Shown here piece by piece: positions 10,097 to 33,965 of a stretch of 64,000 bases of DNA. This DNA is from Candidatus Thorarchaeota archaeon (GTDB lineage: Archaea; Asgardarchaeota; Thorarchaeia; Thorarchaeales; Thorarchaeaceae). Where the stretch lies: contig JAWAQK010000002.1 in the NCBI GenBank assembly GCA_038893995.1, positions 20,529 to 84,528 on the forward strand, in the 5' to 3' direction. Below the pieces are notes generated by a model. It saw nothing but the letters and a program-made list of their open reading frames with translations, ran no database searches and was not told the DNA's origin. Numbering within the stretch: the stretch's first letter is position 1; the number at the start of each line of letters is the position of its first letter. The position numbers and the translations under genes were made by a program.

Positions 10097-10232
10097 GGGT
10101 CGGTAGTCTAGCTTGGTATGATACTTGCTTGGGGTGGCCTGTTATTAGTTAGGGCCTCCAATATGCAAGAGGACGGGCGTTCAAGACCGCATGCGACTCA
10201 CGCATGCTCTGGAATTCGCCCCCGGCCCACCA
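10097..10232 (+). tRNA. tRNA-Pro(GGG) with two introns: 29 nt at position 37/38 and 30 nt inside the T-loop
   Basis: Acceptor GGGTCGG pairs with CCGGCCC, then A and an encoded CCA. Anticodon stem CTTGC/GCAAG is perfect; the loop TTGGGG is interrupted by a 29-nt insert containing a GGCC...GGCC hairpin. T-stem GGGCG/CGCCC flanks TTC[30 nt]AATT; the insert holds a 7-bp palindrome GCATGCG-ACTCA-CGCATGC. Confidence 0.6.
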
Positions 10233-10331: not shown

Positions 10332-10437
10332 GCCGGGGTGTCCCAGCGGCTACGGAGGCGGTCTCGAAGCCATTCAGATGCGGCGATAGAACCGCTGTGC
10401 TTTGCACTCGTGGGTTCGAGTCCCATCCCCGGCGCCA
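10332..10437 (+). tRNA. tRNA-Ser(CGA), class II, with a 21-nt anticodon-loop intron
   Basis: Acceptor GCCGGGG/CCCCGGC plus G and an encoded CCA. Anticodon stem GCGGT/ACCGC, loop CTCGAA, then a 21-nt insert. Long variable arm GTGC-TTT-GCAC. T-arm GTGGG-TTCGAGT-CCCAT. Confidence 0.8.
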
Positions 10438-11015: not shown

Positions 11016-11160
11016 TGGCGGGCGCGCCAGGATTTGAACCTGGGACATCTTGCTTGCTTCAAGTGACCGTAGAAGACCATTCAAGGATCACAGACCGAAG
11101 GCAAGCGCCCTATTGGCTCTTCGAGGACAATGTCCCGAATCCAAACTAGACTACGCGCCC
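11016..11160 (-). tRNA. tRNA-Arg(TCG), probable, with about 70 nt of insertions: about 25 nt next to the D-stem/position 26 and about 40 nt at 37/38
   Basis: Minus-strand acceptor GGGCGCG/CGCGCCC with G and an encoded CCA. Intact T-arm CCAGG-TTCAAAT-CCTGG. Anticodon stem CTTGC/GCAAG with loop CTTCGG interrupted by about 40 nt. A second insert lies between D-stem 3' strand GGAC and the anticodon stem. Confidence 0.55.
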
Positions 11161-11217
11161 ACACCTACTGAGCTTGGATGTTTACCATAAGTACTTTGTC
11201 CACCTACTCATACAACC

Positions 11218-11457
11218 TTACCTTAAGCCCAACTCCTTCTGCCATGCTTCAATGAAGTGTTCCAGAGATCTATCGTAGGAAGACTCCGCATCCTTGGGGA
11301 ACAGACAACCGGGCAACTCACGATGTGACCAGTGGTACTGCAGACAATCACAACAACGTCCCTTTCGTGCACAGCCAGGATAGCTGCAGGTACAGTGTTT
11401 CAGATTCTTTTCAATCTTGCATTCCGCCATGGACATCCCGATCCCATCACAAAACAA
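11218..11457 (-). CDS. Small cysteine-rich protein with a C..GCAxxGxCC.C motif (putative redox/metal-binding)
   Basis: 79 aa containing CTCSYPGCARKGRCCDCLQYH, which matches the C_GCAxxG_C_C-type signature. Confidence 0.45.
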   Translation of the reverse strand: MFCDGIGMSMAECKIEKNLKHCTCSYPGCARKGRCCDCLQYHWSHRELPGCLFPKDAESSYDRSLEHFIEAWQKELGLR

Positions 11458-21841: not shown

Positions 21842-21972
21842 TGGCGGGCTCGGCGGGATTTGCTCCAATACCGAGACACGCTCGGTCCGATTGAACCCGC
21901 AACCCTCAGGTGTCTCTCTCGGTTTCCCTTGAGATAAAAGCCTGCTGCGCTGCCTGGTTGCGCCACGAGCCC
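21842..21972 (-). tRNA. tRNA-Lys(TTT) with two introns: about 23 nt at 37/38 and about 31 nt in the T-loop
   Basis: Acceptor GGGCTCG/CGAGCCC with G and an encoded CCA. D-arm GCGC-AACCAGGCA-GCGC. Anticodon stem GCAGG and loop CTTTTA, then an insert with a TCTC...GAGA hairpin. T-stem GCGGG/CCCGC flanks TTCAA[about 31 nt]AT. Confidence 0.6.
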
Positions 21973-22291: not shown

Positions 22292-22427
22292 GCCCCTGTG
22301 GTGTAGTCCGGCTAGCATACTAGACTGTCACACTTGGTTGACAGGTGTCCCAAGGGCTAGTCTGGTAACCCGGGTTCAAATTGGGTTGTGGTAAGCACAT
22401 CCCATGAAGGTCCCGGCGGGGGCGCCA
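22292..22427 (+). tRNA. tRNA with two insertions: about 25 nt in the anticodon loop and 30 nt in the T-loop. Anticodon is tentatively CAC (Val)
   Basis: Acceptor GCCCCTG/CGGGGGC (one G-U pair) with G and an encoded CCA. T-stem CCGGG/CCCGG flanks TTCAAAT[30 nt]. Best anticodon arm is AGACT-GTCACA-[25 nt]-T-AGTCT. The D-loop is long and the variable loop would be 6 nt, so the isotype is uncertain. Confidence 0.45.
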
Positions 22428-28326: not shown

Positions 28327-28378
28327 CTGACATACCCTCTTCTGTCTACGCATTCTCACAAGTATTCGGCAAGTAGGT

Positions 28379-28688
28379 GCAGCGGCCCACTCAGCGTCGA
28401 TTGTCCTTCCCAGTCAGCTCTCTCGTCGCTCTTCTCGGGGCGGCTTCCTCTGGGGCTCCTCCGCTCTGCCTTAGGGCTGTTCCCGCCAGGGCCTGACCCG
28501 GTTCGGCAGTCTAAGCACACCTGCATCAGTTCTACAACTGATGTTGTGGCCGCGTCGGACTCCAGAGACCACCCGTCACCGTCCTTCGACGAATGCTGTC
28601 CTGGTCCGGTTTCAACCTCTGCGGTGTTACTGGCGCCACTATTGCCTTGTGGTTTAAGCCGTGGCAAACGGCCCGCCCTTCCCGCTGC
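28379..28688 (-). ncRNA. Signal recognition particle RNA (7S/SRP RNA), probable
   Basis: The minus strand has the helix-8-like segment GGUCAGGCCCUGGCGGGAACAGCC (compare the bacterial/archaeal consensus GGUCAGGUCCGGAAGGAAGCAGCC). A terminal helix pairs GCAGCGG with CCGCUGC about 310 nt apart. The region has only low-complexity ORFs. Confidence 0.5.
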
Positions 28689-28750
28689 AAATCTTTACTG
28701 GCCGGCTTCTCATAAAAGGATTCTCCTGGGTTGCATAGTTGTCCAAGTCC

Positions 28751-33467: not shown

Positions 33468-33965
33468 ATGACGCAGTACATCAAAGTTGCCCTTATGGGC
33501 TCTGGATATGCGGGAAAGTCCACGCTGATTAAGCTATTGACTGACACGCCCGCCAGGCTCGACGGCAATTACAAACCTACAGCCGGAATGGACTGTGGGA
33601 CCATCACACTCGATGGCGGAACAAAGATAACGTTAGTTGAAATGGGTGGTCAGAGCCATTTCGAGTTCCTATGGCCAGACTTCCTGCAAGGCAGTAGTAT
33701 GGTCGTGGTCGTCACCGAGAGCACCCCCAAGGCTGTCCTGAAAACCCGTCAACTGCTTGAGAGCTACAAGGACCATCTTGCTGGGCGTCAAGTAGTTGCA
33801 ATAGCTAACAAGCAAGACCTGCCAGGCTCGATGAAACCAGAGTCTGTACAAGATCTTCTGGGTGTCCCTACCTACGGCATGGTCGCGATAGACCCCAAAC
33901 AGAGAATGCAGGGCTACAAGGTATTGATCGAAGGTCTTAGAGGTCTGGTCCAAGTGGCAGGCTAG
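33468..33965 (+). CDS. Small Ras-superfamily GTPase (Arf/Sar/Rab-like)
   Basis: 165 aa with P-loop GSGYAGKST, switch I T in DCGT, DxxG as EMGGQ, and NKQD (ANKQDL). Confidence 0.7.
   Translation: MTQYIKVALMGSGYAGKSTLIKLLTDTPARLDGNYKPTAGMDCGTITLDGGTKITLVEMGGQSHFEFLWPDFLQGSSMVVVVTESTPKAVLKTRQLLESYKDHLAGRQVVAIANKQDLPGSMKPESVQDLLGVPTYGMVAIDPKQRMQGYKVLIEGLRGLVQVAG

Follow-up and report, generated by a model that had tools for sequence, protein, structure and literature searches.

The locus considered here raises the question of how a tRNA gene spread over 145 nt is to be parsed, that is, which of its nucleotides would remain in the mature tRNA and where the others interrupt it. It lies on the minus strand of the window, by which we mean the whole 64,000-nt stretch of Thorarchaeote DNA that was analyzed. 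The initial annotation had read it as a tRNA-Arg(TCG) with about 70 nt of insertions, bounded by a perfect acceptor helix and an intact T-arm, and the sequence agreed on all of these points. The Rfam model RF00005 matched 11019..11160 (minus strand) over its full length (model positions 1-71) with 41.0 bits against a gathering threshold of 29, at E=1.9e-07 in a 401-nt search and E=3.1e-05 for the whole window, which is far beyond chance, and ARAGORN assigned the spliced product to tRNA-Arg(tcg). Along the minus strand (window 11160..11016), the full gene reads GGGCGCG-TA-GTCT-AGTTTGG[attcgggacattgtcctcgaagagcca]ATA-GGGC-G-CTTGC-CTTCGG[tctgtgatccttgaatggtcttctacggtcacttgaagca]A-GCAAG-ATGTC-CCAGG-TTCAAAT-CCTGG-CGCGCCC-G-CCA. 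Its acceptor helix is a perfect 7 bp, with GGGCGCG at the start and CGCGCCC-G-CCA at the end; its T-arm is CCAGG-TTCAAAT-CCTGG, and the two inserts sum to 67 nt (27 + 40). Likewise, the intron of about 40 nt that had been placed within CTTGC-CTTCGG...A-GCAAG, with TCG as the anticodon, proved to be exactly 40 nt and lies at position 37/38. No ORF of at least 100 aa overlapped 11016..11160. The tRNA-Arg(TCG) gene of this Thorarchaeote (Asgard) is genuine and has the following parts:

11016..11160, minus strand: complete tRNA-Arg(TCG) gene, 145 nt (Rfam RF00005; ARAGORN on the in-silico spliced product)
11141..11160, minus strand: exon 1, with acceptor 5' strand GGGCGCG, U8 A9, D-stem 5' strand GTCT and D-loop AGTTTGG to G18G19 (sequence; gap-free orthologue alignment)
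11114..11140, minus strand: intron 1 of 27 nt (ATTCGGGACATTGTCCTCGAAGAGCCA), set between G19 and A20 of the D-loop (strict hBHBh'; without counterpart in the orthologues)
11095..11113, minus strand: exon 2, with D-loop ATA, D-stem 3' strand GGGC, G26, anticodon stem 5' strand CTTGC and anticodon loop CTTCGG
11107..11110, minus strand: D-stem 3' strand GGGC
11096..11098, minus strand: anticodon TCG
11055..11094, minus strand: intron 2, 40 nt (TCTGTGATCC...TTGAAGCA), at the canonical position 37/38 (BHB)
11016..11054, minus strand: exon 3, with A38, GCAAG (anticodon stem 3' strand), ATGTC (variable loop), the T-arm, CGCGCCC (acceptor 3' strand), discriminator G and CCA
11016..11018, minus strand: encoded CCA (genomic)

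ARAGORN in its default mode did not report this gene, its sole call over the whole window being tRNA-Pro(CGG). A whole-window Rfam scan at gathering thresholds also gave no match to it because of the speed filters; a short stretch or laxer filters recovered the match. The intron option of ARAGORN forced a tRNA-Pyl(cta) with a 57-nt intron on the span, and this call was rejected because the program permits one intron only, in the anticodon loop. ARAGORN was similarly rejected as an arbiter of splice products. When all combinations of BHB-flanked deletions were enumerated and filtered by ARAGORN, 117 different products were accepted, including Arg(tct) and Ser(tga), indicating that the program did not discriminate between them and that comparison with orthologues alone decides.

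The exact 25-nt 3' end of the tRNA was present in 16 species-representative genomes, 14 of them labelled as Thorarchaeota or Promethearchaeota MAGs and two (L005 and L007) as "uncultured archaeon". At 15 of these 16 genome loci, we found an intronless tRNA-Arg(TCG) of 76-78 nt (for example, GGGCGCGTAGTCTAGTCTGGATAGGGCGCCAGCCTTCGAAGTTGGATGTCCCAGGTTCAAATCCTGGCGCGCCCGCCA), which scored 59-62 bits with the Rfam tRNA model and carried the D-arm GTCT-AGTYTGGATA-RGGC. Deletion of pre-tRNA positions 21-47 and 67-106 left the 78 nt called tRNA-Arg(tcg), and this product aligned with the intronless Thorarchaeota orthologues over 78 columns without a gap, at 94% mean column identity. After removal of intron 1, the D-arm was GTCT / AGTTTGGATA / GGGC, an exact match to the orthologues. 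Since the orthologous D-arm fixes the D-stem 3' strand as GGGC, the first insert is located inside the D-loop after G18G19. The initial annotation had instead taken GGAC as that strand and placed an insert of about 25 nt between it and the anticodon stem (25/26); the insert is really 27 nt, starts after G19, and has the D-stem 3' strand of the orthologues downstream of it. Removal of intron 2 gave the loop CUUCGGA, the same as in the orthologue L001. In the aligned tRNA-Arg sequences, 210 of 210 pair cells of the cloverleaf were standard and all 21 pairs were kept; as a control, sliding the partners by 1 to 3 columns lowered pairing to 35-51%. The anticodon stem of the window gene showed two double compensatory changes (28-42 from C-G to U-A, and 29-41 from A-U to U-A). 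The intact cloverleaf pairs together with these changes argue for continued selection on the spliced product.

The archaeal BHB motif consists of two 3-nt bulges on opposite strands, a 4-bp helix between them, and flanking helices (hBHBh'). The geometry used here is reportedly that of Marck & Grosjean in 2003 and of the EndA-RNA structure. Its 5' strand runs through h, H (4 nt), a 3-nt bulge cut after the second nucleotide, and h', and its 3' strand through h', H, a 3-nt bulge again cut after the second nucleotide, and h. Applied to a 5-bp anticodon stem, this rule gave position 37/38, and when it was used to remove four other introns, from two further tRNA genes of the window, the anticodon loops and T-loops that resulted were standard.

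Around intron 1, the predicted motif was strict and complete. Its h is UCUA/UAGG (4 bp), its H is GUUU/GAGC (4/4, including two G-U pairs), its bulges are GG|A and CA|A, and its h' is UUCGGGAC/GUCC(U)CGAA, with 6 bp uninterrupted and 8 if one bulged U is allowed. The intron itself forms the hairpin TTCGGGAC-ATT-GTCC(T)CGAA. Of the 7,315 (i,j) positions that the precursor allows, this BHB ranked first, and shuffled intron 1 sequences reached H=4 with h' of at least 6 in 0.045% of trials. Because AT flanks both junctions, displacing the cuts by 1 or 2 nt would leave the product unchanged. By these motif criteria, intron 1 is a putative EndA-type BHB intron. The GGAC that had been assigned to the D-stem lies inside its hairpin. 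Also, the block TTGTC-CTCGAAG, which had been thought to resemble an anticodon arm, is the 3' half of the same hairpin; it is unable to form an arm, since no complementary 3' strand follows TTGTC. The suggestion that this block arose by recombination from a duplicated anticodon arm gained no ground: in local alignments of intron 1 against its own tRNA and an orthologous tRNA, with shuffled sequence as the null, 77% and 33% of shuffles, respectively, scored at least as high, and similarity of intron 1 to the orthologous anticodon arms was not significant.

Another register for intron 1 has the predicted folding energy in its favor. In the D region, the BHB conformer was predicted at -9.4 kcal/mol, compared with -14.8 kcal/mol for a competing fold that combines TTGG/CCAA with the mature D-stem, so that the BHB conformer is not the predicted minimum-energy fold. 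With TTGG/CCAA as the central helix, cuts would fall after pre-tRNA positions 22 and 50, leaving a 9-nt D-loop (AGUUUGGAU) that lacks A21. However, this arrangement has 3x2 and 1x3 internal loops and not the two staggered 3-nt bulges on opposite strands that EndA requires, and its product falls 1 nt short of every orthologue. With the strict BHB register, which was also found in L007, L017, and L018, the orthologous D-loop is regained exactly. A true intron 1 in the alternative register is thus improbable.

The motif at intron 2 is relaxed in its 5' bulge and still qualifies as a BHB. Its H is CUUC/GAAG (4/4), the second bulge is CA|A, and the 5-bp anticodon stem serves as h; on the 5' side, a 2x2 mismatch separates the bulge GG|U from the 6-bp helix GUGAUC/GGUCAC. 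This BHB ranked fourth among the precursor positions, and shuffles reached H=4 in 0.7% of trials. In the predicted local fold, the central helix was longer by two G-U pairs, which would move the 5' bulge by 2 nt. The alternative folds at introns 1 and 2 would both yield products unlike every orthologue. C/D-box motifs (RUGAUGA, CUGA) were absent from intron 2 on inspection by eye.

We then considered the surroundings of the gene, where two further features were located:

11218..11457, minus strand: small Cys-rich DUF6485 ORF directly upstream of the tRNA-Arg gene (synteny marker)
11186..11196, minus strand: promoter-like element AAGTACTTATG, at -36..-26 of the tRNA-Arg gene (register match to orthologues)

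The DUF6485 ORF adjoined tRNA-Arg(TCG) in 14 loci at 56-66% identity (tblastn), and the identical DUF6485 gene of L020 gave a Pfam PF20095 match. In the window, and likewise at no fewer than 14 other loci, it and a Bud32/RIO-like kinase ORF flank tRNA-Arg(TCG). From the cloverleaf, the collinear sequence, and this conserved neighborhood, the window gene qualifies as an orthologue of the Thorarchaeota tRNA-Arg(UCG). The tRNA gene is in the same orientation as the DUF6485 ORF in the window, L013, L015, and L018, and is inverted relative to it in some lineages (e.g., L001, L002, and L008-L010), indicating local inversions of the tRNA gene within a conserved neighborhood. When the 50 nt upstream of 18 loci (L001-L018) and of the window gene were set in register, the orthologous genes shared the element aGAAGTCCTTAAGtG at -37..-23, which is strongly conserved across Thorarchaeota. 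It is probably the BRE/TATA of the tRNA-Arg gene; upstream of the remaining tRNA genes in the window, no such element was evident.

The kinase-like neighbor protein had a counterpart with 100% identity in a "Candidatus Thorarchaeota archaeon" MAG. At the nucleotide level, this MAG (GCA_038825165.1, contig JAWBPJ010000033.1) was 99.955% identical to the window over 6.7 kb, and the Logan assembly of SRR27730018 was 100% identical over 5.0 kb. Both contained the tRNA-Arg gene with the two inserts unchanged, indicating that the inserts are not an assembly artefact. Diverged copies of introns 1 and 2 were not found in close relatives, the sole other copies (L020 and L021) being identical; all available copies of the exact gene are thus alike and carry no covariation to support the intron helices.

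Other genes of the window encode MCM, a Hel308-type helicase, RNA polymerase A'/A'', S7, S12, and NusA-KH, and its G+C content is ~51%. Exact-match queries with the S12 protein and with P0017 gave no hits. A match to archaeal SRP RNA at 28378..28689 (minus strand) scored 81.9 bits against a gathering threshold of 96.5 and probably represents a divergent Asgard SRP RNA. At 33468..33962 (plus strand), adjoining an RpoD / L18e / L13 / S9 cluster, a 165-aa ORF carries a small GTPase domain of the Arf/Roc/Ras family and is a 'eukaryotic signature' protein typical of Asgard archaea.

Five further tRNA genes were located in the window:

10097..10232, plus strand: tRNA-Pro(GGG), 136 nt, with introns of 29 nt at 37/38 and 30 nt in the T-loop (59/60), both with H 4/4 and h 5
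10332..10437, plus strand: tRNA-Ser(CGA), which has a long variable arm and is interrupted at 37/38 by a 21-nt intron (Rfam tRNA, 36 bits, local search)
21842..21972, minus strand: tRNA-Lys(TTT), with two introns, one at 37/38 (23 nt) and one in the T-loop at 58/59 (31 nt), both central helices 4/4
22292..22427, plus strand: tRNA-Asp(GTC)-like gene, in which a 30-nt intron cleanly interrupts the T-loop and an insert of ~29 nt follows the anticodon loop CTGTCAC
tRNA-Pro(CGG), uninterrupted

At least five of the six tRNA genes in the 64-kb window are thus interrupted, and recovery by standard means was low (one of six by ARAGORN, two of six by the default Rfam scan). tRNA-Pro(GGG) was missed by ARAGORN and all Rfam scans and was found by searching for an acceptor stem followed by CCA. 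In the whole-window scan, tRNA-Ser(CGA) appeared as a weak tRNA-Sec-like match only (26.9 bits). No single clean BHB fitted the ~29-nt insert of the tRNA-Asp-like gene, which may consist of nested or adjacent introns, as in other Asgard tRNAs.

The gene itself, the exon ends defined by its orthologues, the two BHB motifs, the synteny, and the identity across independent assemblies lead us to consider it very probable that this is a functional tRNA-Arg(UCG) gene with two protein-spliced BHB introns, one of 27 nt in the D-loop and one of 40 nt at 37/38. Transcription, EndA cleavage, and ligation would then proceed as follows. The precursor would be transcribed from an archaeal promoter ~30 nt upstream, and each exon-intron boundary pair would fold into a BHB with two 3-nt bulges around a 4-bp helix. 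The EndA splicing endonuclease, which in Asgard archaea is an (alpha-beta)2-type enzyme bearing the L1/CSL loop, would cut both bulges in each BHB, after which an RtcB-type ligase would join the three exons into a 78-nt tRNA whose CCA is already encoded. A Pfam scan of 20 mid-size ORFs of the 64 kb found no EndA/tRNA_int_endo or RtcB in the window.

A decaying tRNA pseudogene, whose inserts are never removed, would also be missed by ARAGORN and by the whole-window Rfam gathering scan, and would score, as this gene does, ~20 bits under its intronless orthologues (41 vs 59-62). However, the low score reflects the insertion penalty of the covariance model and not decay of the exons, whose 21 helix pairs are all intact, with compensatory changes. 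Removal of the two inserts, both in BHB motifs, restores the exact orthologous sequence, and the gene occupies the conserved syntenic slot of tRNA-Arg(TCG) and has kept the upstream element. In addition, the window has five other tRNA genes, of which four are interrupted, three of them in an equally clean BHB manner, indicating that interruption is the norm in the host genome. We therefore consider a pseudogene very unlikely. Scarcely credible is the parse first proposed, with a D-arm GTCT-AGTTTGGATTCG-GGAC and an intron of ~25 nt at 25/26 or 26/27 as the remnant of a duplicated anticodon arm: although GGAC (pre-tRNA positions 26-29) can pair with GTCT and the resulting 80-nt product is still called tRNA-Arg(tcg) by ARAGORN, its junction gave no BHB (H 0/4, h 0, h' 0), none of 30 neighboring junctions had a full central helix or a complete motif, and its 12-nt D-loop would be unlike those of all orthologues (AGTYTGGATA-RGGC).

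A functional gene with two BHB introns has precedents. BHB introns at sites other than the canonical one, the D-loop among them, have long been established in Crenarchaeota and other archaea, as have tRNA genes that carry two or three introns (PMC4090602, PMC4033280, PMC6379350). The initial annotation had regarded the intron position as a rare one; for the D-loop, where it truly lies, introns have been described before and their cleavage in vitro has been achieved (PMC3241643, PMC5829648). The pre-tRNA-Glu(UUC) of Methanopyrus kandleri has a D-loop intron at 20b/21 and a canonical intron at 37/38, both of which are substrates of the (alpha-beta)2 splicing endonuclease (PMC5829648). The gene described here similarly combines two BHB-type introns, in the D-loop and at 37/38, but it is a tRNA-Arg of an Asgard lineage (Thorarchaeota), its first insertion lies a few nucleotides earlier, after G19, and its D-loop motif is of the strict hBHBh' type, compared with the relaxed HBh' in M. 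kandleri (PMC5829648). EndA of Aeropyrum pernix needs no cofactors to excise a D-loop BHB intron in vitro (PMC3241643). By analogy with that substrate, pre-tRNA-Thr2(UGU), which also has a BHB intron in its D-loop, we propose that the same mechanism may operate in the Thorarchaeote, where splicing is predicted; the A. pernix precursor contains a single intron, and both the tRNA and the lineage differ. The two-intron tRNA-Arg is therefore a further instance of a documented archaeal arrangement and involves no new mechanism.

Multi-intron tRNA genes of Thermoproteales were reported by Sugahara et al. in 2008 and by Fujishima et al. in 2010 (summarized in PMC4090602 and PMC4033280). According to these summaries, they escape standard tRNA finders, as the Thorarchaeote genes do, and similar intron families across their tRNAs have been read as transposition; in contrast, the introns that we compared lacked significant mutual similarity. 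Introns 1 and 2 showed none to the six other introns of the window or to three D-loop introns elsewhere. The best pair was intron 1 and that of L018, for which 1.7% of shuffles scored at least as high, a value uncorrected for ~20 tests. A transposed intron family of the Thermoproteales type was rejected for lack of significant similarity between the introns. Among the Asgard archaea, Atabeyarchaeia and Freyarchaeia have introns in 92-95% of their tRNA genes, more than half of these genes having several, and many of the introns are non-canonical (PMC11291895). Their tRNA-Arg(TCG) has one predicted intron (PMC11291895, Supplementary Data 4), compared with two here, in the class Thorarchaeia.

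A metagenome scan for any insert of 18-48 nt at the tRNA-Arg D-loop site after G19 yielded L017/L019 and L018, and L007 also carries an intron there:

L007, 7648..7757: tRNA-Arg(GCG) with a 32-nt intron at the same D-loop site
L017, 519..626: syntenic tRNA-Arg(TCG) with a 30-nt D-loop intron, as in L019
L018, 660..768: syntenic tRNA-Arg(TCG) with a 31-nt D-loop intron

The L017/L019 and L018 genes are without a 37/38 intron. As observed, the introns of L017/L019, L018, and L007 have the same BHB register as intron 1 (H 4/4, 4/4, and 3/4), and their sequences are unrelated; the site is empty in 15 other species. It is conceivable, though we hold it with considerable doubt, that the D-loop site after G18G19 is a recurrent intron slot in Thorarchaeota tRNA-Arg genes, in a host lineage that is intron-rich like Atabeyarchaeia and Freyarchaeia.

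In practical terms, most tRNA genes of the window are missed by standard tools, and the tRNA counts and derived quality scores of such Asgard MAGs are underestimated, as already suspected by Kaneta et al. 2018 (PMC5829648). With this gene, the Asgard lineages whose tRNA genes are heavily interrupted come to include a Thorarchaeote, and a two-intron gene set against intronless syntenic orthologues offers a clean contrast for the gain and loss of BHB introns. Of mild interest is the reuse of one D-loop site by unrelated introns in orthologous tRNA-Arg genes of Thorarchaeota. If the slot is truly recurrent, it would point either to repeated independent gains at a hot spot or to one old intron with rapid turnover and frequent loss, and this Thorarchaeote would provide snapshots of how the archaeal relatives of eukaryotes gain tRNA introns.
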